DNA of 50,875 bases, from IMG/VR virus record IMGVR_UViG_3300045988_097988, one strand, 5' to 3'. The notes beneath the pieces were generated by a model. The model did not search any database. It saw only the letters and a program-made list of their open reading frames with translations, and was not told the DNA's origin. The DNA comes from a virus. A program made the translations under genes and the position numbers. Positions 3,365 to 48,026 of the stretch are shown here, piece after piece (the stretch's first letter is position 1; the number at the start of each line of letters is the position of its first letter).

Positions 3365-4279
3365 ATGGCATACGAAATCAACGAAGAGCTGGCCCGGCGG
3401 GCGCACGAGATGCGTTCCACTCGGGACTATAAGCCGGATTCGGCCACGGCGGAGTATCTGCGACAGGTCGAAGAGGCCCGGCGAATTGCCGAGGAGTCAA
3501 AAGCCCGATGCAAGACTACGGCCCAGCGGAACCGGGTAGACGGGATGCTCGACAAGTACGAGCGGACACTGGCCTTTGCCATCAACCGGGAAAATGAGGT
3601 CGGCACATGGTGTCCGAGTATCTTAATCGTCGGCGGCTCAAATTTCCCTGTGGCAAAGAAAAAGCGGCAAGTAGCCGCGATGGATGCGAACCGGGTCAAT
3701 TTTGACAAAGCCCGGGATATACTGGAAAAGATTCAGGGTTATGGCTATACGGCTCCTATCAACAGCCGCGACCCGGAAGCTCTGGCAGCCCTCCGGGAAG
3801 AACTGGACAAAGAGCGCGAGAGCCACGCCCATATGAAAGCTGTCAATGAGTATTTTAAGCGGTACGGCTCCCTAGATGGCTGCGCAGACGTCGGAGAGTA
3901 CGAGCGGGCCGAAATCGATGGCCGGATGAAGCAGTGGGGCGACCCGAGGCCGTTTGTATCGTGGCAGCTTGGCAACTCCCGCAAGCGCATTCAGCGGCTC
4001 GAAAACCGTATCAAAGAGATGGAGGCGGCTGTCGAGGCCAACGCCCAGCCCGTAGAGCTGGACGACCTCCCCGGCGTTACCTACCACGAAAACAGCGCGA
4101 CGATGCGGGTGCAGCTTATCTTTGAGGGTAAGCCAGAGCCGGACATCCGGGCCGTCCTCAAGTCTCACGCCTTTCGCTGGTGTCCCTCGCAGGGCGCGTG
4201 GCAGCGGCAGCTCAACGCCAACGGCAAGCGAGCGGCCCGCGAGGTACTGGAACAAATCAAGGCTTTACAGGGAGGTTGA
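3365..4279 (+). CDS. Hypothetical protein (possibly DUF3560-like)
   Basis: 304 aa, compact coding with an RBS. The C-terminal F-RW-PSQGAWQRQL pattern suggests the family. The family call is from memory only. Confidence 0.4.
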   Translation: MAYEINEELARRAHEMRSTRDYKPDSATAEYLRQVEEARRIAEESKARCKTTAQRNRVDGMLDKYERTLAFAINRENEVGTWCPSILIVGGSNFPVAKKKRQVAAMDANRVNFDKARDILEKIQGYGYTAPINSRDPEALAALREELDKERESHAHMKAVNEYFKRYGSLDGCADVGEYERAEIDGRMKQWGDPRPFVSWQLGNSRKRIQRLENRIKEMEAAVEANAQPVELDDLPGVTYHENSATMRVQLIFEGKPEPDIRAVLKSHAFRWCPSQGAWQRQLNANGKRAAREVLEQIKALQGG

Positions 4280-17641: not shown

Positions 17642-18175
17642 ATGATGAGAGTATGGAGGGCCGGAGAGTCCGAGGAACAGGCCCATAATATCCTTGAGGC
17701 GAAGATATGGTTTCAGATGTGCCGCGAGATGGCCGACGCTGTAGAAAACCAGCGCGGCAAACTCTCCCGTTGGATAGACGCTGCGACCCGTATCACCCAG
17801 AACCTCAGTGGTATGCCGGGCGGTGGAGGCGACCACGGGGACAAAATCGCCGAGGCCGTGACCCGCAAAGACACCGAAGCCCGCAGGCTTGAGGTCATGG
17901 AGGATGAGCTGAAGAAACGCCGTGCCGAGGGCGTGACCCGTATCTTTTGCATCGTCTCCGCCGAGGACAAGGGTAGCATCAGTCGGGCCGATTACATCCG
18001 CAGCTATTATATCGACTGCGAGGCAAAGGACGCCGAGGGCCACTTTAAGCTCAAGACCTACGAGGACGTGGCCGCTGAGTATGGGGTATCTGTATCCAGC
18101 GTGGCAAGCGGCCTCAAGCGCGGACTGGAAGCCTTGGCCGAGATTTGGCCCGACATCGCAAAGGATTGTGCGTAA
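17642..18175 (+). CDS. Sigma-70 region-4-type transcriptional activator (ArpU/RinA/DUF1492-like late regulator)
   Basis: The C-terminal segment TYEDVAAEYGVSVSSVASGLKRGLEALAEIW is a region 4.2-like HTH. It is the last early gene before the late region. Confidence 0.6.
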   Translation: MMRVWRAGESEEQAHNILEAKIWFQMCREMADAVENQRGKLSRWIDAATRITQNLSGMPGGGGDHGDKIAEAVTRKDTEARRLEVMEDELKKRRAEGVTRIFCIVSAEDKGSISRADYIRSYYIDCEAKDAEGHFKLKTYEDVAAEYGVSVSSVASGLKRGLEALAEIWPDIAKDCA

Positions 18176-18224
18176 TGTACAAAATGCTCAAAATACGGCC
18201 CGGTTTTTCTACACGGCCCTGTAT

Positions 18225-18256
18225 TGTCGTTGTAGTGTCGTTGTATTGACGTTGCA
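18225..18256 (+). repeat. Three 11-bp-phased direct repeats TG(T/A)CGTTG(T/C)A
   Basis: TGTCGTTGTA at 18225..18234 and 18236..18245, and TGACGTTGCA at 18247..18256. The last overlaps a -35 TTGACG. Confidence 0.6.
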
Positions 18257-18275
18257 ACTAGCTATAAGCTAAAAT
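18246..18275 (+). promoter_or_regulatory. Candidate promoter for the non-coding RNA region
   Basis: TTGACG (18246..18251), 18-nt spacer, TAAAAT (18270..18275). Confidence 0.45.
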
Positions 18276-18388
18276 GCTACCAGCGCAACCGCGCCACGCG
18301 GCCACGCGCTAAAGCGAGAGAGGCACATCCGGCAGGGCCTGTAATGAAGTCGGCAGGCCCCGTCCCTCCACCTCCTCTCCCGTTGTAT

Positions 18389-18433
18389 AACAGCCCTCGC
18401 AAGGTTTAGGCCCCTTGAGAGCGGCTGTTTTTA
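18389..18433 (+). terminator. Long hairpin plus T-run, either an intrinsic terminator or a structural helix of the larger RNA
   Basis: AACAGCCCTCGCAAGG ... CCTTGAGAGCGGCTGTT followed by TTTTT. Confidence 0.45.
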
Positions 18434-18434
18434 T

Positions 18435-18506
18435 GCAGACGTATGAAATGACGGCGTGAGCAGCAGGCATAACGCCGAGGTGGTTTGATTCCGCCCGTTT
18501 GCACCA
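18435..18506 (+). ncRNA. tRNA-like module with a canonical acceptor/T-arm and encoded CCA but no D-arm
   Basis: The acceptor is GCAGACG/CGTTTGC (G4-U69). The T-arm is GGTGG-TTTGATT-CCGCC. The discriminator is A, followed by CCA. The anticodon stem CGGCG/CGCCG has a 16-nt loop, and only 10 nt stand in place of the D-arm. Confidence 0.4.
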
Positions 18507-18746
18507 AGCCGCCGCCAACCCCGCAAGGCGGCTATACTATACGCATGGCCCCATCAGCCACCGGGAGCTTAAATATTCCTTTCCTTTCGACCCTCTCTGA
18601 AAGTTACTCTGCATTTTCTCCTCCTCACGGCATATCCCAGACGGAGGCCCCGGAACGCCGGGCGGTTCGTGTTTTCCGCCAGCGTGTGCGTTAGAATCCC
18701 CCAAACCCCTTGACGCGCCCGACCAACGCGGCAAGGGGGACTATAA

Positions 18747-18880
18747 GCCGTTGTAGCTCAAGTAGAGCGGTGGGCATTTAACCCACGTCACATTGACGAT
18801 ACGCAAGAGCGGCCCCGCCCGGCCTGTCCCCGGGACGGATTGAAACTCTTGTGGTGCTGGTTCGAGTCCAGCCATCGGCT
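18747..18880 (+). ncRNA. Aberrant tRNA-like gene with a 69-nt structured insertion at the variable-arm position
   Basis: The acceptor GCCGTTG/CATCGGC has one T-T mismatch. The D-stem is GCTC/GAGC with a 5-nt loop. The anticodon stem GTGGG/CCCAC has loop CATTTAA (A at position 33, central UUU). The 18787..18855 insert folds as CAAGAG...CCCGG-loop-CCGGG...CTCTTG. The T-arm is GCTGG-TTCGAGT-CCAGC. No CCA is encoded. Confidence 0.45.
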
Positions 18881-18888
18881 CTTTATAT

Positions 18889-18954
18889 GCCGCCTAGCGC
18901 AATTTGGAGCGCGCTCGTGGGAGTAGCCACGGGAGGTTCGATTCCGATGGCGGT
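18889..18954 (+). ncRNA. Degenerate tRNA-like element (pseudo-tRNA?)
   Basis: GCCGCC/GGCGG(T) acceptor-like pairing, a GCGC/GCGC D-stem, a 7-bp stem CTCGTGG/CCACGGG with the 6-nt loop GAGTAG, and a TTCGATT T-loop with a poor T-stem. It is only 66 nt long. Confidence 0.3.
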
Positions 18955-18959
18955 TTTAT

Positions 18960-19035
18960 ACTCGGGTAGCTCAACAGGCAGAGCGGCGGTCTCCAAAACC
19001 GCAGGCTGGTGGTTCGATTCCATCCCTGAGTGCCA
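18960..19035 (+). tRNA. tRNA-Trp (anticodon CCA), phage-encoded
   Basis: Canonical cloverleaf. The acceptor is ACTCGGG/CCTGAGT. The D-arm is GCTC-AACAGGCA-GAGC. The anticodon arm is GCGGT-CTCCAAA-ACCGC. The variable loop is AGGCT. The T-arm is GGTGG-TTCGATT-CCATC. The discriminator is G, and CCA is encoded. Confidence 0.9.
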
Positions 19036-19072
19036 AGCAAAAAATATTCATATTCACGACGAAATTTCACCG

Positions 19073-19115
19073 AAAAGGCTGGACATTATACTCTAAACAA
19101 AGTATAGTAATAGCG
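19073..19115 (+). promoter_or_regulatory. Promoter/operator cassette, near-identical to 49458..49500
   Basis: TGGACA (19080..19085), 17-nt spacer, TATAGT (19103..19108). The operator TATACTC-N6-AAGTATA (19087..19106) lies in the spacer. 40 of 43 nt are identical to the 49.46-kb copy. Confidence 0.7.
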
Positions 19116-19156
19116 TAAGGAAAAGCCGAAAGGCTTGTAAGAAAGGAAGCGAGGAT

Positions 19157-19273
19157 ATGAATTTGAACGTAAGTGAAGCATTACTCAGAGCTATTTTGGA
19201 GCTTATCGACAAATGCGACACGCTTGAAGAGCTGCGCGAGAGCGTCAAGCGTATCGTCGGAGAAGATAAGTAA
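19157..19273 (+). CDS. Small ORF (38 aa), possibly a minimal ribbon-helix-helix protein
   Basis: MNLNVSEALLRAILELIDKCDTLEELRESVKRIVGEDK. The RBS is GCGAGGA. Its position matches that of the RHH genes in the 47-kb cassettes. Confidence 0.4.
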   Translation: MNLNVSEALLRAILELIDKCDTLEELRESVKRIVGEDK

Positions 19274-19356
19274 AAAAATTAGACCCCCCGCAAAGCCTGG
19301 CAAGCACCGGGGAGTCTAACGCCAAAATAGAGCCGCCCGGAAGCCTTACTCCGAGC
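19272..19356 (-). ncRNA. Candidate convergent small RNA (about 85 nt)
   Basis: It is bracketed by the minus-strand promoter at 19363..19391 and a minus-strand intrinsic terminator (GACTCCCCG...CGGGGGGTC plus TAATTTTTTT, plus-strand coordinates 19272..19316). It has a 5' hairpin CCGCTCGG...CCGGGCGG and contains no ORF. Confidence 0.5.
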
Positions 19357-19362
19357 GGTTTT

Positions 19363-19391
19363 ATTATACTATTTTTTCGGTAGCATTTCAA
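19363..19391 (-). promoter_or_regulatory. Minus-strand promoter TTGAAA-17-TATAAT
   Basis: On the plus strand, ATTATA is at 19363..19368 and TTTCAA at 19386..19391, with exact 17-nt spacing. Confidence 0.55.
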
Positions 19392-19418
19392 GCAGTCACA
19401 CAAAGTGGCTGCTTTTTT
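19391..19418 (+). terminator. Rho-independent terminator overlapping the -35 of the antisense promoter
   Basis: AGCAGTCAC / GTGGCTGCT stem (9 bp, one G-U), 5-nt loop, TTTTTT. Confidence 0.65.
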
Positions 19419-19446
19419 ATTTGCCGGAAGTTGGAGGAAAAGAACG

Positions 19447-19935
19447 ATGATTAGCAAAGAGCTGCTCAAGATGGCCGTCGCCGACCTAAAACCTTACGAA
19501 AACAACCCGCGCGTCATCTCCCCGGAGGCCGTCAACGCCTGCGCGGAGAGTATAAAGCAGTGCGGCTCCCTCGACCCTATCGAGGTGGACGAAAACAATG
19601 TCATCCTCAGCGGCCACACCCGCCGCCTCGCCTTGATGCAGCTCCACGTTGAGACCGCCGACGTCGTAAGGTACACGGGCCTGACCGACGAGCAGAAACA
19701 GAAATACCGCCTGCTGGCCAACAAAACGGGAGAGTTCACGGGCTGGGATTTCTCCAAGCTTGAGCGGGAGCTGAAAGAGGTCGATTTTGGGGATTTTGAC
19801 TTTGATTTTGACGGCGACATCCCCGACCCGACAGCCTCCGGCGCAGCGGAAGAGACCGCCCCGGACAGCTTCAAGGAGTACGACGAGGACATCAAGACCG
19901 AGCATAAATGCCCCGCTTGCGGGTACGAGTGGTGA
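19447..19935 (+). CDS. ParB-like nuclease-domain protein with a C-terminal zinc ribbon
   Basis: LKPYENNPRVISPEAV...IEVDENNVILSGHTRRLAL is the ParB N-terminal domain signature. The C-terminus is CPACGYEW. ATG at 19447 follows GGAGGAAAAG. Confidence 0.7.
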   Translation: MISKELLKMAVADLKPYENNPRVISPEAVNACAESIKQCGSLDPIEVDENNVILSGHTRRLALMQLHVETADVVRYTGLTDEQKQKYRLLANKTGEFTGWDFSKLERELKEVDFGDFDFDFDGDIPDPTASGAAEETAPDSFKEYDEDIKTEHKCPACGYEW

Positions 19936-19939
19936 AGAT

Positions 19940-21037
19940 ATGAGTGAGTATAAAATACCCTCTATGCGAGAGATAGAGGCCCTGCCGTGGAACGGCTACA
20001 AGGTCGTTTCGACATTCAGCGGCGGTGGCGGCTCATGTTTAGGATACCGCATGGCCGGGTATCACGTCATATACGCCAACGAGTTCGTGGAGGAGGCCCA
20101 GAAGACCTACCGCCTGAACCACCCGGACGCCTACCTTGACACGCGGGACATCCGCACCGTGACCCCGGAGAGCATTCTGGAAATCACCGGGATGAAAAAG
20201 GGAGAGCTTGACCTGTTCGACGGTTCGCCGCCTTGCTGTGCATTCTCTACCGCCGGAAGCCGGGAGAAAGGCTGGGGCAAGCAGCGGGCCTATTCTGACG
20301 GCAAGACCCAGCGCGTGGATGACCTCTTTTTCGAGTACATCCGCATTTTGGACGGCTTGCAGCCCAAGGCGTTCATCGCTGAGAACGTCTCCGGCCTTAT
20401 CAAGGGGACGGCGAAAGGATACTTTAAGCGTATCATGGCCGCCATGAAAGCCTGCGGGTATACCGTCAAGGCCGCGCTTATCAATGCCCAGTATTGCGGA
20501 GTACCGCAGAACCGGGAGCGCGTCATTTTCATGGGTGTGAGAAACGACCTCGGCCTTTCGCCCGTATATCCCGTGCCGAACCTGCCTGTTATCTCCCTCG
20601 GTGAAGCCCTTGACGGCGTAGTGAATGACCCGCGAGAGGTCGAGATGCTCAAGGCCAACGCCCGGAAATACCGCTGGGGCGACGTCCTGAGAAAGATACC
20701 TCCCGACCCGGACAAGCCCGTCAGCGGCTCTGCCGTAATGAACGGGAGCTATTTTAATCTGGTGCGGGAGTCGTTGTACTACCCGTGCAGCACCATTACC
20801 GCGAGCGGCGGCGGTACGTCGATAGCCGCCATGTGTCATCCGACCGAAAACCGCAAGTTTACTATCCCTGAGCTGAAACGTATTACAAGCCTGCCGGATG
20901 ATTTCATCCTGACGGGAGAGTTTGAGCAGCGGTGGGAACGCGCCGGGCGCATGGTGCCGCCTTTGATGATGAAAGCCATTTCGGAGACCTTGAGAGAGGA
21001 GGTGCTGGACAAGTGCCGGAAAAACGCGACAACTTAA
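19940..21037 (+). CDS. DNA (cytosine-5) methyltransferase-family enzyme with Arg replacing the conserved motif X Asn
   Basis: Motifs present are I (FSGGGGS), IV (SPPCCAFS), VI (AENVSG), VIII (QNRERV) and IX (RKFTIPELKRITSLPDDF). Motif X reads AGRMVPP instead of the canonical GN(A/S)VPP. The Arg codon CGC is at 20948..20950. Confidence 0.85.
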   Translation: MSEYKIPSMREIEALPWNGYKVVSTFSGGGGSCLGYRMAGYHVIYANEFVEEAQKTYRLNHPDAYLDTRDIRTVTPESILEITGMKKGELDLFDGSPPCCAFSTAGSREKGWGKQRAYSDGKTQRVDDLFFEYIRILDGLQPKAFIAENVSGLIKGTAKGYFKRIMAAMKACGYTVKAALINAQYCGVPQNRERVIFMGVRNDLGLSPVYPVPNLPVISLGEALDGVVNDPREVEMLKANARKYRWGDVLRKIPPDPDKPVSGSAVMNGSYFNLVRESLYYPCSTITASGGGTSIAAMCHPTENRKFTIPELKRITSLPDDFILTGEFEQRWERAGRMVPPLMMKAISETLREEVLDKCRKNATT

Positions 21038-21060
21038 AGCCGAGTGGGACGTGGAGATTT
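21033..21060 (+). repeat. 28-bp perfect direct repeat, copy 1 (spans the MTase stop codon and the cmoA N-terminus)
   Basis: CTTAAAGCCGAGTGGGACGTGGAGATTT is identical to 21619..21646. Confidence 0.9.
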
Positions 21061-21618
21061 GACAAGCAGGTTGCAGACTGCTTCGAGGATATGTTGAGCC
21101 GCTCTATCCCGGATTATCCCGTAATGAGAAACCTCGTGTACAGATTCGGCAGCAGAGTCTTGCGCGGCAGGCCCGCGCCTACCGTGGTAGACCTTGGATG
21201 CTCCAACGGCTTGGCCGTCCAGCGTTTCGCTGAGACGTTCCCGGATGCTCATTTCATCTTGAGGGACGTCTCGGAGGATATGGTACAGGCCGCGCGGGAG
21301 AGATACCCCGACGAAAGCCGTTTTGACATCGCCTGCGCCAACATCGCCGACGCCTACCCACTCTGTATGGCAGACCTTTGCCTTTTGGTATTGACCTTGC
21401 AGTTTACCCCGGTAGAGGAGCGGTAGGCCATCCTGCAAAAGGTATACCGCCGCATGAGGCCCGGCGGCGCACTCATTTTGGTGGAAAAGGTACTCGGGGA
21501 CGGCCAGAAAGCCGAGGAAGAGCTTACCGCCATCTACTACGACCTCAAAGAGGAACACAACTACACGCGGGAGCAGATAGCAGCAAAACGCCTCTCCCTG
21601 CGTCACGTCATGGAGCCG

Positions 21619-21646
21619 CTTAAAGCCGAGTGGGACGTGGAGATTT
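21619..21646 (+). repeat. 28-bp perfect direct repeat, copy 2 (cmoA C-terminal region, read in a different frame)
   Basis: Identical to 21033..21060. It is translated LKAEWDVEI here and LKPSGTWRF in copy 1. Confidence 0.9.
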
Positions 21647-21742
21647 TGCGCAAGGCGGGATTCTCTCACGTTTTCCAGTTCTGGCAGTGTCTGAATTTTT
21701 GCGGCTGGATTGCTTATAAGGACTGAAAGGGAGTGAGCAGCG

Positions 21743-22246
21743 ATTGGCCGCAAGGGTAAGTTTGAGCAGTGGCTAGAACCTGAGGGGCTAACGCTGCTGA
21801 GAGGATGGGCGCGGGACGGATTGACCAACGAGCAAATAGCTCAAAACATGGGAGTCCACCGCGATACCCTAGCGGAGTGGCGGAAGCGATTTTCCGTCAT
21901 TTCCGACGCTCTAAAAAGTGGGCGGGAAAATGCCGACTATGCAGTCGAAAATGAGCTGTTCCAGAGCTGCCATACTCGCACCGTGACCGTCAAAAAGCCT
22001 ATCAAGGTAAAGACAGTGAAGCAGGACGGGAAGAAAAAGATAGAGGAGGAAAAGGTCGTGTATGCTGAGGAGCAGGTCGTTGTACCTGCCAACGTCACGG
22101 CTCAAATCTTCTGGCTCAAAAACCGCCGAGCGGACAAATGGAAAGACAAGCCGGAGGCAGTCGAGACGCAGGCCACGCTTGCGGATACCATTCAGGCCGC
22201 CTACGACCGCCGCAAAACAAAAGAAAAGAACGGGGGTGACGGCTGA
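21743..22246 (+). CDS. terS: Terminase small subunit, probable ATT start
   Basis: The conserved TerS N-terminus (I)GRKGKFEQWLEPEGLTLLRGWARDGLTNEQIAQNMGV lies upstream of the first canonical start (TTG at 21821). The frame opens at 21737. ATT at 21743 is 9 nt after AAAGGGAG. Confidence 0.7.
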   Translation: MGRKGKFEQWLEPEGLTLLRGWARDGLTNEQIAQNMGVHRDTLAEWRKRFSVISDALKSGRENADYAVENELFQSCHTRTVTVKKPIKVKTVKQDGKKKIEEEKVVYAEEQVVVPANVTAQIFWLKNRRADKWKDKPEAVETQATLADTIQAAYDRRKTKEKNGGDG

Positions 22247-46887: not shown

Positions 46888-47076
46888 ATGCCCTTTGTTC
46901 CCCCTATCGTCTCGATGGGCGGCGTTATCGCGTCCATCAACTACATGATGCAGCAGGCCCGGAAGCGCCGGGAAGCGGAGGAGAAGAAGCGGCAGGAGGC
47001 GGAAGCCCGCCACACCTGCTCCAAAGACATCCCCTGCGAGAACTGCGTCCCGGGCTGCCACCTGAAAGAGGAGTAA
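46888..47076 (+). CDS. Small lysis-cassette protein with an N-terminal hydrophobic segment
   Basis: Strong RBS GGGAGGT. 62 aa. Confidence 0.45.
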   Translation: MPFVPPIVSMGGVIASINYMMQQARKRREAEEKKRQEAEARHTCSKDIPCENCVPGCHLKEE

Positions 47077-47204
47077 GGCCGCAACCATTTTCGGCACGTC
47101 ACGAAAATGGTTCTGGGCTGCTTACAATCTGAAAGCGGCTAAAACGCCCGTTTTTAACCCTTAACCCCTCGAAAAGTCCAACTTAACTGCTAAAAATGAG
47201 AAAA

Positions 47205-47254
47205 AACGGCCATTTTGGAGTCTAAACCCTCACGAAATGGCCGTTTCATTTTCA
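47205..47254 (+). terminator. Terminator-like hairpin at the end of the late/lysis operon
   Basis: AACGGCCATTT / AAATGGCCGTT 11-bp stem followed by a T-rich tract. A related hairpin AACCATTTTCG/CGAAAATGGTT is at 47083..47112. Confidence 0.55.
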
Positions 47255-47292
47255 GTTTTGACTATTTAGCTATCTGTCTACTTTGGTGTTTT

Positions 47293-47345
47293 CTTTGCAA
47301 TTTTGCAAAGAAAGTATTGACTTGTTATTAGCAACAGTATATAAT
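47293..47345 (+). promoter_or_regulatory. Operator palindrome plus promoter of RHH gene 1
   Basis: CTTTG-N8-CAAAG at 47293..47310. TTGACT (47317..47322), 17-nt spacer, TATAAT (47340..47345). A 10-bp inverted repeat CTTGTTATTA/TAATAACAAG flanks the -10. Confidence 0.7.
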
Positions 47346-47372
47346 TGTTGTTAATAACAAGGAGGTGAGCAG

Positions 47373-47546
47373 GTGGCTGGAAAGAGCCGCGCTGAATATT
47401 TCCGAGAACTCCGTAAAAAACAAAAGCAGCTTGTATTCCTTGTAGATAAGGGGAAGGCAGAAGCTCTTGACCGCAAACTCTCCGAGCGAGGCGAGAGCCG
47501 GGCAGAGTGGTTTAGACGGATTCTCGATAAAGAACTCAGCGAATAA
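47373..47546 (+). CDS. Ribbon-helix-helix (Arc/CopG-like) protein 1 (57 aa, GTG start)
   Basis: KQLVFLVDKGKAEALDRKLSERGESRAEWFRRILDKEL is an RHH pattern. The RBS is AAGGAGGTG. Below the ORF-track cut-off. Confidence 0.65.
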   Translation: MAGKSRAEYFRELRKKQKQLVFLVDKGKAEALDRKLSERGESRAEWFRRILDKELSE

Positions 47547-47619
47547 AAAATAACTGTACCCCGTCACCGTCCAAAGTACCGGGATACAGTTATCAGCGAC
47601 CGAGAGACAAGCCCACGGT
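47542..47619 (-). ncRNA. Candidate convergent small RNA 1 (about 78 nt)
   Basis: It starts downstream of the minus-strand promoter at 47626..47654. It ends at a minus-strand terminator hairpin (47550..47593) plus TTTTTTATT. It contains no ORF with an RBS. Confidence 0.5.
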
Positions 47620-47625
47620 AAATTT

Positions 47626-47654
47626 ATTATACCACCGGGCGCGTTCTCTCACAA
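47626..47654 (-). promoter_or_regulatory. Minus-strand promoter TTGTGA-17-TGGTATAAT
   Basis: On the plus strand, ATTATA is at 47626..47631 and TCACAA at 47649..47654. There is an extended -10 TG. Confidence 0.6.
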
Positions 47655-47673
47655 GAGAAAGAGAGAACTTTTT
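47643..47673 (+). terminator. Plus-strand terminator overlapping the antisense -35
   Basis: GTTCTCTC / GAGAGAAC stem, 10-nt loop, TTTTT. Confidence 0.55.
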
Positions 47674-47690
47674 CCAGTGGTGAGCAAAAG

Positions 47691-47742
47691 CTTTGTGTTT
47701 TTGCAAAGAAAATATTGACTTTTGTGTATCCAAGGGTATAAT
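47691..47742 (+). promoter_or_regulatory. Operator palindrome plus promoter of RHH gene 2 (paralogue of 47293..47345)
   Basis: CTTTG-N8-CAAAG at 47691..47708. TTGACT (47715..47720), 16-nt spacer, TATAAT (47737..47742). Confidence 0.65.
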
Positions 47743-47776
47743 GTACTTATGGGGACACAAAAGAGAGGTGATGCGA

Positions 47777-47947
47777 ATGTCACCCAAAATGGGCCGACCA
47801 ACAACCGACCCTAAGACCCACGAAATGCGCATTAGAATGTCCGATAAAGACGTTCAGACCCTTGAATCGTGCTGCGAAAAATCCGGCATGACGAAAGCGG
47901 ACGTAATTCGTCAGGGGATACGGCTGTTTCTTGAGAGCCTAAAATAA
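47777..47947 (+). CDS. Ribbon-helix-helix (CopG-like) protein 2
   Basis: HEMRIRMSDKDVQTLESCCEKSGMTKADVIRQGIRLFLESL is an RHH pattern. ATG at 47777 is 8 nt after AGAGAGG. ATG at 47771 or 47789 is also possible. Confidence 0.65.
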   Translation: MSPKMGRPTTDPKTHEMRIRMSDKDVQTLESCCEKSGMTKADVIRQGIRLFLESLK

Positions 47948-48026
47948 GAAAATCCCTCACACTGTTGTATCTTGGCGGACGCACAGTGCAAGGGATTCCA
48001 CAAGCCCGAGAGGAATTTCCCCGGGT
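47941..48026 (-). ncRNA. Candidate convergent small RNA 2 (about 86 nt)
   Basis: It starts downstream of the minus-strand promoter at 48033..48061. It ends at the hairpin 47951..47997 plus a T-rich tail. It shares the GGGCTTGT motif with sRNA 1. Confidence 0.5.

Follow-up and report, generated by a model that had tools for sequence, protein, structure and literature searches.

A phage RNA operon of tRNA-like modules, one with a conserved domain in its variable loop

An RNA operon between a regulator gene and tRNA-Trp

Between a phage regulator gene and a tRNA-Trp gene, the viral sequence IMGVR_UViG_3300045988_097988 of the IMG/VR database (50,875 nucleotides [nt]; this whole stretch of DNA is called the window) contains a 785-nt gap at 18176-18960. 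Does this gap encode a protein, one large RNA, or several RNAs? A first-pass annotation had called it free of open reading frames (ORFs) and had proposed a structured, conserved non-coding RNA (ncRNA) locus adjoining a phage tRNA, possibly a large ornate RNA of the ROOL or GOLLD type. The longest ORF on either strand between the regulator stop codon (18175) and the start of tRNA-Trp (18960) has 69 amino acids, and comparison with five diverged relatives revealed translated similarity in all six frames, the frame differing from lineage to lineage. Such frame switching indicates conservation at the nucleotide (RNA) level rather than of a peptide. On these two grounds, the ORF-free description of the gap holds and a conserved small protein is ruled out; the gap holds a phage RNA operon rather than protein-coding sequence.

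The modules of the operon are listed in Table 1, and an A/U-rich linker of the UUUAUAU type precedes every one of them, as read from the window and its relatives. The locus sits at the boundary between early and late genes, with a promoter beside the phage regulator gene; the packaging genes (terminase small subunit, terminase large subunit, and portal) lie downstream of it, starting at 21821. The folding energy of the whole 785 nt compared with that of shuffled sequences gave z = -2.5 for the plus strand and z = -3.0 for the minus strand. Because this bulk signal is modest and not strand specific, the case for RNA structure rests on comparative evidence, and that evidence bore out the proposal of a structured, conserved ncRNA locus next to a phage tRNA.

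Table 1. Features of the RNA operon and its flanks in the window
Feature	Coordinates	Strand	Basis or details
Regulator gene, sigma-70 region-4-like/DUF1492-like phage transcriptional regulator (phrog_36)	17642..18175	+	177 amino acids
Regulatory region	18226..18275	+	GTCGTTGTA repeated exactly twice (18226-18234, 18237-18245), plus a degenerate third copy; promoter of sigma-70-like type
Candidate promoter	18246..18275	+	-35 TTGACG (18246-18251), 18-bp spacer, -10 TAAAAT (18270-18275); 10/12 consensus positions
RNA operon, modules in order	18282..19035	+	5' leader 18282-18434, tRNA-like #1 18435-18506, core 18507-18746, V-tRNA 18747-18880, tRNA-like #3 18889-18954, tRNA-Trp 18960-19035
Conserved 5' hairpin AGCGCAACCGCGC...GCGCU, likely transcript 5' end	18282..18310	+	block GCGCAACCGCGC invariant in 8/8 aligned sequences
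Lineage-variable leader, purine/pyrimidine hairpin and terminator-like hairpin	18316..18434	+	minimum-free-energy fold
tRNA-like #1	18435..18506	+	acceptor 7 bp (GCAGACG/CGUUUGC), no D arm, A73, encoded CCA
Core structured domain, ~240 nt, multi-helix	18507..18746	+	RNAalifold consensus and pair counts
V-tRNA, cloverleaf tRNA-like RNA	18747..18880	+	Rfam tRNA (RF00005), 40.6 bits against a gathering threshold of 29
V-domain within V-tRNA	18787..18855	+	conserved strand, long irregular hairpin, pseudoknot
tRNA-like #3	18889..18954	+	acceptor 6-7 bp, D arm GCGC-AAUUUGGA-GCGC, no variable loop
tRNA-Trp, canonical	18960..19035	+	anticodon CCA, CCA end encoded; ARAGORN; Rfam 64.4 bits

Related loci, numbered with the prefix L, were collected from IMG/VR by using the upstream regulator protein as a query, and further V-tRNAs (the tRNA-like RNAs with a variable-loop domain, described below) were retrieved by pattern scans. 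Three loci (L001 to L003) are 96 to 98% identical to the window over the whole region, L004 lacks exactly 18740-18876, and in L005 to L010 the regulator is 51% identical and the nucleotide alignment is ∼72% over 18638-18947. The pattern scans placed a V-tRNA in 39 viral stretches, with further variants among 65 pattern matches, and in 68 metagenome stretches, mostly from human gut; two GTDB contigs, one from an uncultured Faecalibacterium metagenome-assembled genome (MAG) and one from a Candidatus Gemmiger MAG, also carry one. With differing anticodons, the insert-bearing tRNA family recurs in over 100 viral and metagenomic contigs from the gut. Other searches added little: an exact 40-mer scan of viral contigs found nothing, a loose pattern scan and a scan with the 14-mer GGAGGCCCCGGAAC returned mostly chance matches, and scanning GTDB genomes with the regulator protein yielded no relative. 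Among cultured phages, only Faecalibacterium phage Roos is related to the window in its structural genes.

We compared all 4,227 covariance models of Rfam 15 with the whole window by cmscan and reran the scan at E ≤ 10 over 17900-19500. Two matches reached the gathering threshold in the window, and both were tRNAs: tRNA-Trp and the V-tRNA. The relaxed scan added a weak tRNA-Sec-like match at 18434-18503 (18 bits, E = 2) and a chance match to a small RNA. The suggested ROOL and GOLLD classes are contradicted by these scans, since neither matched the window at the gathering threshold, 17900-19500 at E ≤ 10, or the relatives; HEARO and raiA, two further models that had been named for checking, gave no match in either the window scan or the relaxed scan. 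When the relatives' loci were scanned, no family other than tRNA was found at threshold. A near-threshold match to the abiF motif was seen in L138 (35.2 bits against a gathering threshold of 37, E = 0.012), with none in the window; this spacer hairpin (L138 7641-7676) lies just 5' of the V-tRNA on a Faecalibacterium MAG contig, and similar hairpins are present in L177 and L203. Within the collections searched, no Rfam family, GenBank phage annotation, or published description corresponded to such a variable-loop domain or module set, and when the region and an array-type V-tRNA were compared with GenBank phages by blastn, only tRNA-Trp and one unannotated gut contig were returned.

The V-tRNA and the domain in its variable loop

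The usual view of a bacterial or phage tRNA is of a canonical cloverleaf with a short or simple variable arm. The V-tRNA has an acceptor stem of 7 bp, a D stem of 4 bp, an anticodon stem of 5 bp, and a canonical T arm, and its Rfam match covers model positions 1 to 71 with a 62-nt insert in the variable region; the V-tRNAs of relatives score 32.9 to 47.6 bits as tRNAs. We tested this fold for covariation in a 28-sequence alignment, using 500 shuffles and slid controls. In the alignment, 93.0% of cells were paired, compared to 73.1% in shuffles and 30 to 51% in slid controls, and 163 cells had changed on both sides versus 45.6 expected, values that none of the 500 shuffles reached. Pairs changed on both sides numbered 7/7 in the acceptor stem, 5/5 in the anticodon stem, 3/5 in the T stem, and 6/7 in the outer stem of the V-domain.

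Three features of a canonical decoder were considered, namely a 7-nt anticodon loop with U33 and purine 37, a D loop with G18G19, and a variable region of 4 to 5 or ∼10 to 25 nt, and the V-tRNA of the window departs from all three. Its anticodon loop, CAUUUAA (18775-18781), has A at position 33 and UUU at 34 to 36. U33 is near-universal in tRNAs; in the V-tRNAs of relatives we observed A33 or C33, or loops of 6 or 8 nt, and U33 only in L160, L186, and L227. The D loop in the window (AAGUA) has 5 nt and no GG, which occurs only in array-type members (for example L107, L158, L186, L193, L213, and L227). The variable region is 69 nt long in the window and 65 to 72 nt in the Faecalibacterium-type members checked. 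The discriminator base is U and CCA is not encoded; an encoded CCA follows the V-tRNA in L138, L139, L184, L203, L024, and L179.

Excision of the insert in silico led ARAGORN to call a tRNA of 70 to 76 nt in 61 of 65 unique sequences. The calls include Lys UUU (the window), Asn GUU, Ser GCU and GGA, Ile GAU, Arg UCU, and a "His AUG," along with irregular loops of 6 or 8 nt. The CAUUUAA loop with its A33 is kept across different anticodon-stem sequences and across both types of insert (see below), which suggests that this loop is selected rather than decaying. In L171, a canonical tRNA-Lys(UUU) follows the V-tRNA(UUU), so the latter would be redundant there as a plain decoder. Two forms of suppression were considered and rejected. 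Reading the loops as ochre or amber suppressors (CAU-UUA-A, UAG-CUA-A) places the anticodon in the wrong register, and the preceding base is not U; a stop-recoding system would entail in-frame stops in genes across the genome, and the window has one domain-splitting in-frame stop (TAG at 21424) and no CUA tRNA.

The insert always begins right after the anticodon stem, with the strand GUCA(A)CAUUGAYGAUAC (GUCACAUUGACGAUAC at 18787-18802 in the window), and ends at a conserved GG before the T stem. Between them lies a long irregular hairpin (18803-18852) whose outer stem, GCAAGAG/CUCUUGU in the window, differs wholly in sequence between lineages with its pairing kept. The apical loop, CCUGUCC (18823-18829), is complementary to UGAC/GACG of the conserved strand (18794-18798). 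Across the family, this loop reads (Y)UAGUCA(C) or a derivative and is complementary to the UGAY of the conserved strand, and the variants are matched: UGAC occurs with GUCA, UGAU with AUCA (14 of 14 class-B variants), and UGGU with ACCA or ACCG. The class to which the window belongs has this pairing shifted by one base (GACG with UGUC).

The UGGU variant belongs to a second, diverged type of insert, present in L297, L322, L327, and GenBank MT839005.1. This type consists of GACAACRYUGGUGAYAC followed by a hairpin (the MT839005.1 copy is at L344 1368-1501), and the tRNAs that carry it have the same CAUUUAA loop and a canonical GG-containing D loop and are placed after tRNA-Trp. A local hairpin, GUCA-CAU-UGAC, was considered as the only fold of the conserved strand and is disfavored: the second insert type (GACA...UGGU) breaks this hairpin yet keeps the loop pairing UGGU:ACCA, and for this reason we favor the pseudoknot. 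As these comparisons show, the V-tRNA of the window belongs to a wider family of phage tRNAs in which a conserved domain of ∼60 nt, predicted to be pseudoknotted, occupies one fixed position in the variable loop.

Could the V-domain be catalytic? Self-cleaving ribozymes (hammerhead, hairpin, twister, pistol, hatchet, and hepatitis delta virus-like) had no Rfam match at E ≤ 10 in the window region or at E ≤ 1 in relatives. By eye, the pieces UGAYGA, GUC, and GAAA resemble hammerhead or hairpin ribozyme cores, but the order and topology of the helices do not fit and are inconsistent across the insert classes. A remnant of an attP or integration site was also ruled out, because a complete tRNA-like gene is present there and the integrase gene is far away (185-1318).

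The surroundings of V-tRNAs differ. In all Faecalibacterium-type loci examined, a regulator homologue ends 210 to 570 nt (mostly 370 to 570 nt) upstream of the V-tRNA, and genes for HNH, ParB-like, methylase, and terminase proteins lie downstream. Others are inside phage tRNA arrays (L193, L186, L158, L227, and L213), and some of these have a canonical D loop and U33. The array of L193 (JGI metagenome contig Ga0265298_10004458, 2160-10767) is phage-like and contains 43 ARAGORN tRNAs in ∼8.6 kb; its V-tRNA (∼3867-4003), which ARAGORN did not call, has a tRNA-Ile gene on either side.

The neighboring modules and the upstream region

The embedded tRNA-like modules of the first-pass annotation were recovered as three units, each of which retains an acceptor stem and a T loop and covaries between diverged phages. 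ARAGORN called tRNA-Trp in the window and missed all three of these modules; it follows that phage tRNA inventories made with standard tRNA finders are incomplete. In tRNA-like #1, a 9-nt linker stands in place of the D arm, followed by a hairpin of 6 to 7 bp with a 14-nt loop, a T arm (GGUGG-UUUGAUU-CCGCC), and an encoded ACCA end (18503-18506). The minimum-free-energy fold is the proposed structure (z = -2.9), and in the alignment 96.3% of cells were paired, compared to 27 to 53% in slid controls; five pairs had changed on both sides. G3:U70 is the alanine identity pair, and together with A73 and CCA it forms a set also used by transfer-messenger RNA (tmRNA). This pair, with A73 and CCA, is found in 7 of 10 relatives of tRNA-like #1 (L020, L043, L171, L182, L259, L309, and L335); the window copy has A3-U70 and G4:U69 instead, the G:U being shifted to 4:69.

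In tRNA-like #3, a 7-bp hairpin with the 6-nt loop GAGUAG replaces the anticodon arm, and the T loop, UUCGAUU, is closed by only two to three Watson-Crick pairs. There are 17 unique homologues, and 90.6% of cells in the alignment were paired versus 38 to 48% in slid controls, again with five pairs changed on both sides; CCA is encoded 3' of this module in L017. Another tRNA-like gene was observed 5' of the V-tRNA in L024 (2691-2761; Rfam tRNA, 39.7 bits) and in L034. Its acceptor, D, and T arms are normal and ACCA is encoded, but the "anticodon arm" is a 5-bp stem with a 3-nt loop (GCUCC-CCG-GGAGC).

The core domain contains a long-range helix of 9 bp, 18538-18546 with ∼18684-18695, in which one pair changes from G-C to A-U in 5 of 15 sequences and which has two mismatches in the window copy. 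Enclosed structures include hairpins at 18547-18559 and 18660-18680 and a nested 8-bp helix formed by CCGGGAGC (18561-18568) and the GCCCCGG inside the invariant GGAGGCCCCGGAAC (18643-18656). Because both strands of this nested helix are invariant, it is uninformative for covariation. The first annotated hairpin of the core, 18507-18533 (paired region 18508-18532, loop ACCCCGCA), is real and covaries by eye, as is that at 18703-18739 (a nested hairpin at 18706-18738), which covaries in pair counts. Besides the long-range helix, three core hairpins show compensatory changes. Pyrimidine tracts lie at 18576-18598 and 18614-18626, and invariant blocks are common to at least six lineages.

Upstream of the modules, the annotated promoter proved to be a promoter-like site with the second-best consensus match in the scanned region, which has four such sites versus 1.0 ± 1.1 in shuffles. 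The GTCGTTGTA repeats are spaced 11 bp apart and abut the -35 element. In three lineages (the window, L006, and L259), the -10 element lies 6 to 7 nt 5' of the same conserved hairpin, and other lineages have analogous direct repeats and a -10 element before the RNA; the repeat sequences differ, matching different variants of the regulator. The 5' end of the V-tRNA (GCCGTTGTA, 18747-18755) is one base off the promoter-proximal repeat, a likeness that is probably due to chance because other lineages share the tRNA 5' end but have different repeats.

The hairpin at the likely transcript start, annotated as 18284-18312, is kept in every lineage. Conservation within the locus is lowest in the rest of the leader, where GAGAGAGG (18316-18323) pairs with CCUCCUCUCC (∼18371-18380) in a purine/pyrimidine hairpin. 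The annotated hairpin 18389-18429, delimited in the fold as 18390-18428, is real and terminator-like, is followed by UUUUUAU, and is found only in this lineage. The minimum-free-energy fold of 18285-18434 gave z = -3.3. An analogous purine/pyrimidine hairpin with a U-tract is present in the L020/L171 group and absent from L005/L006. A transcript of ∼150 nt (18282-18433) is plausible as a promoter-proximal terminated product.

The modules are combined differently in different loci. Their order or combination differs in L017, L024, L297, and MT839005.1; the core domain occurs without an adjacent V-tRNA in L004 and L297, and in L012-type and L024-type loci the V-tRNA lies behind unrelated structured leaders. 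An intrinsic terminator directly follows the V-tRNA in L012-type loci and tRNA-like #3 in L006.

Further observations concern the flanks and the rest of the window. A 38-amino-acid ORF (19157-19273) has its own promoter-like site (19080-19108) and is followed by convergent terminator-like hairpins (19333-19358 on the minus strand, 19390-19414 on the plus strand); a strong promoter-like site lies on the minus strand at 19391-19363 (11 of 12 positions). A gene for a class-I S-adenosylmethionine methyltransferase (20932-21726), closest to phrog_4752 ("tRNA methyltransferase") and CmoA, is interrupted by one in-frame TAG (21424-21426), past which the frame and the homology continue. The TAG is also present in the close relatives L001 to L003 and L215. 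It could mean that the gene is a pseudogene, that it is expressed in two pieces with a restart at the ATG at 21454, or that the stop is read through. Finally, GC content dips to 0.46 at 47001-48000, compared to 0.49 to 0.62 elsewhere in the window, near the right end of the prophage-like region; this dip may mark a moron or an acquired gene.

Possible roles of the locus and comparison with known systems

One potential explanation for the data, to which we give about an even chance, is that the locus is an RNA operon releasing tRNA-shaped RNAs that would act mainly as tRNA mimics or as nuclease-insensitive variants of tRNAs. In this model, tRNA-processing enzymes of the host would cleave the primary transcript within the A/U-rich linkers of the UUUAUAU type, with RNase P generating the 5' ends of the modules and RNase Z and the CCA-adding enzyme finishing those 3' ends without an encoded CCA. 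Several stable tRNA-shaped RNAs would then be released in the late phase. The V-tRNA of Faecalibacterium phages appears to have lost features of efficient decoding (A33 for U33, no G18G19) with its V-domain strictly kept, so that the tRNA body may provide processing and stability and the V-domain the specific functional surface. Such mimics may serve either tRNA-based support of translation or counter-defense; they would engage tRNA-binding factors, the best candidate targets being host tRNA-targeting defense nucleases or other tRNA-handling enzymes, and ordinary codon supplementation would come from the cotranscribed canonical tRNA.

According to published work, changes in the anticodon loop let phage tRNAs escape the anticodon nucleases of the host, and bacterial immunity frequently targets tRNAs (PMC10264068, PMC11464382, PMC11555353, PMC12851939, PMC13096335). 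This published framework, in which phage tRNAs counter such immunity, fits the mimic model; it does not prove it. A more specific proposal, which we put forward only tentatively, is that the V-domain is a natural tRNA-scaffolded pseudoknot neutralizing a host factor, most plausibly a tRNA-targeting immune nuclease or some other enzyme that handles tRNA, and that the locus is a late anti-defense decoy operon.

Several points weigh against the mimic model. The more canonical members L186, L160, and L227 combine U33 with a purine at 37 and a GG-containing D loop; these may simply be decoding tRNAs, in which case the family could be primarily translational. For most sequences, the local hairpin GUCA-CAU-UGAC is a competitor of the pseudoknot, and the three variants supporting the pseudoknot probably represent only two independent events. 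The covariation in the core comes from few independent lineages, and its two longest nested helices, being partly invariant, speak neither for nor against structure. Most homologues came from scans with patterns based on the element's own sequence, which inflates the apparent conservation of the pattern regions. The model also leaves the leader and its terminator-like hairpin unexplained, and sequence analysis identified no partner of the V-domain.

Are V-tRNAs instead genuine decoding tRNAs, with the V-tRNA (Lys in the window) supplementing or replacing host tRNAs and the V-domain being a tolerated giant arm or a new small intron? The full cloverleaf with its canonical T loop, the encoded CCA ends of several members, the standard-length tRNAs restored by excision in 61 of 65 sequences, and the fully canonical anticodon and D loops of L186, L160, and L227 in phage tRNA arrays would all agree with this. 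So would the anticodons, since UUU, GUU, GCU, UCU, and GAU mostly read A-starting codons with U36-A37-A38 and form a coherent set, and engineered tRNAs with variable-arm aptamers are reported to stay active in translation (PMC7590224). We nevertheless consider the decoding role unlikely. It is difficult to reconcile with A33 in the window and in most Faecalibacterium-phage members, with the 6- and 8-nt loops of several others, and with D loops lacking G18G19 in the Faecalibacterium-phage members. In addition, the anticodon loop varies freely among close relatives in which the V-domain is fixed, and the V-tRNA duplicates a canonical tRNA in L171 and L193. As for an intron, the insert matches no self-splicing or ribozyme family, and no insert-free allele was found among the fetched loci, the retrieval of which was biased toward the insert. 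For the Faecalibacterium-phage branch, we prefer mimicry to decoding because of A33 and the missing GG beside a fixed V-domain, the switching of loops among relatives, and the Lys(UUU) duplicate in L171.

That some 600 to 750 nt fold or act as one molecule, or as an RNA-only assembly in the ROOL/GOLLD sense, appears improbable. Of the large ornate RNA first proposed, the ∼240-nt domain with its long-range helix stands, and the ROOL/GOLLD class and the behavior as a single RNA do not. A nested 8-bp helix, several covarying hairpins, strictly invariant single-stranded blocks such as GGAGGCCCCGGAAC, one promoter for the whole locus, and a phage location beside tRNAs, which resembles that reported for GOLLD and ROOL, are what such an RNA would be expected to have. 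However, no ROOL, GOLLD, HEARO, or raiA match was found even at E ≤ 10, and modules are lost, swapped, and reordered between close relatives, the core occurring without a V-tRNA (L004, L297) and the V-tRNA without the core (L012-type loci, tRNA arrays). This gain, loss, and reordering, together with the A/U-rich linkers and the CCA encoded in two types of module, argues for separately processed RNAs rather than one ornate RNA; the fallback of that annotation, a new class or several smaller RNAs, describes the locus better.

In all Faecalibacterium-type loci, the RNA directly follows a late-type regulator gene and precedes the terminase genes. This position raises the question of whether it is a cis-acting leader of the late operon that controls read-through of a terminator into the packaging genes, comparable to lambda PR'-6S-tR' with Q or to HK022 put. 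A promoter with regulator-type repeats, a terminator-like hairpin ∼110 to 150 nt after the start, and the intrinsic terminators that end the RNA unit in L006 and L012 are compatible with such control. Yet V-tRNAs are also found in tRNA arrays without this context, in the window the downstream genes are set off from the RNA unit by another promoter-like site (19080-19108), and the leader portion is what is conserved least; antitermination requires neither CCA ends nor tRNA-like folds, and the regulator belongs to the sigma-region-4-like class, whose members are usually annotated as activators. We regard this role as quite improbable. Least credible, and in our view very improbable indeed, are decaying tRNA pseudogenes within a functionless spacer. 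A33, the missing GG, the weak T stem of tRNA-like #3, and the lack of ARAGORN calls might be read as decay, but compensatory changes keep every helix across lineages whose regulators are only 24 to 60% identical to that of the window, long invariant blocks persist within otherwise diverged intergenic DNA, and the element recurs in more than 100 contigs.

Whichever of these roles applies, the analysis describes a covariation-supported family of tRNAs with a ∼60-nt pseudoknotted domain in abundant human-gut phages of Faecalibacterium and Gemmiger and in large tRNA arrays. If V-tRNAs are mimics or nuclease-proof tRNAs, they would add an RNA-based layer to the tRNA-centered conflict between phages and hosts, and a decoy operon, if true, would represent a new class of RNA-based phage counter-defense. 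If they are decoders, the structural limits of a functional tRNA would be extended. The family also offers a compact natural RNA, scaffold plus domain, for structural study.

How does the locus compare with known systems? Like GOLLD and ROOL, it is a large conserved structured ncRNA locus in a Firmicutes phage or prophage beside tRNA genes. It differs from them in having no covariance-model similarity, in being modular and shuffled rather than of one fixed architecture, and in its host clade, Faecalibacterium/Gemmiger. tRNA-like #1 resembles the tRNA-like domain of tmRNA, with its acceptor stacked on the T arm, no D stem, a helix for the anticodon arm, and A73 and CCA, and G3:U70 is shared by 7 of its 10 relatives, not by the window copy; in contrast to tmRNA, it has only 72 nt, no tag region or pseudoknots, a UUUGAUU T loop, and no Rfam tmRNA match. 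The tRNA cluster of phage T4 includes two cotranscribed small stable RNAs, species 1 and 2. These are likewise non-tRNA stable RNAs in a phage tRNA unit released by tRNA-processing enzymes, and they are not known to carry this variable-loop domain.

Phage tRNA clusters, including tRNAs whose anticodon-loop changes are proposed as an escape from host anticodon nucleases (PMC10264068; T5 tRNA-Lys versus PARIS, PMC11464382), share with the locus co-oriented tRNA-type genes cotranscribed with a canonical tRNA, altered bases flanking the anticodon, and a loop of the Lys(UUU) type, the classic nuclease target. Here, the change is at U33, the D loop lacks GG, the variable region is a 69-nt pseudoknotted one, and two neighboring modules are not cloverleafs. 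Type II tRNAs (Ser, Leu, Tyr, and Sec) and allo-tRNAs (PMC5389517, PMC7609411) also have an extra helix between the anticodon and T arms, and in allo-tRNAs, too, anticodon identity is uncoupled from the tRNA body. Their arms are simple hairpins of ∼10 to 25 nt starting from position 44/45, whereas the V-domain consists of a 16-nt strand and a 50-nt irregular hairpin that are predicted to form a pseudoknot; unlike type II tRNAs, V-tRNAs have a type I D arm and varying discriminator bases. There is also a likeness to engineered tRNA scaffolds and aptamer-tagged tRNAs (PMC7590224), which display a functional fold from the tRNA body via the variable arm. Those scaffolds are synthetic, and the V-tRNA would be a natural, conserved example.

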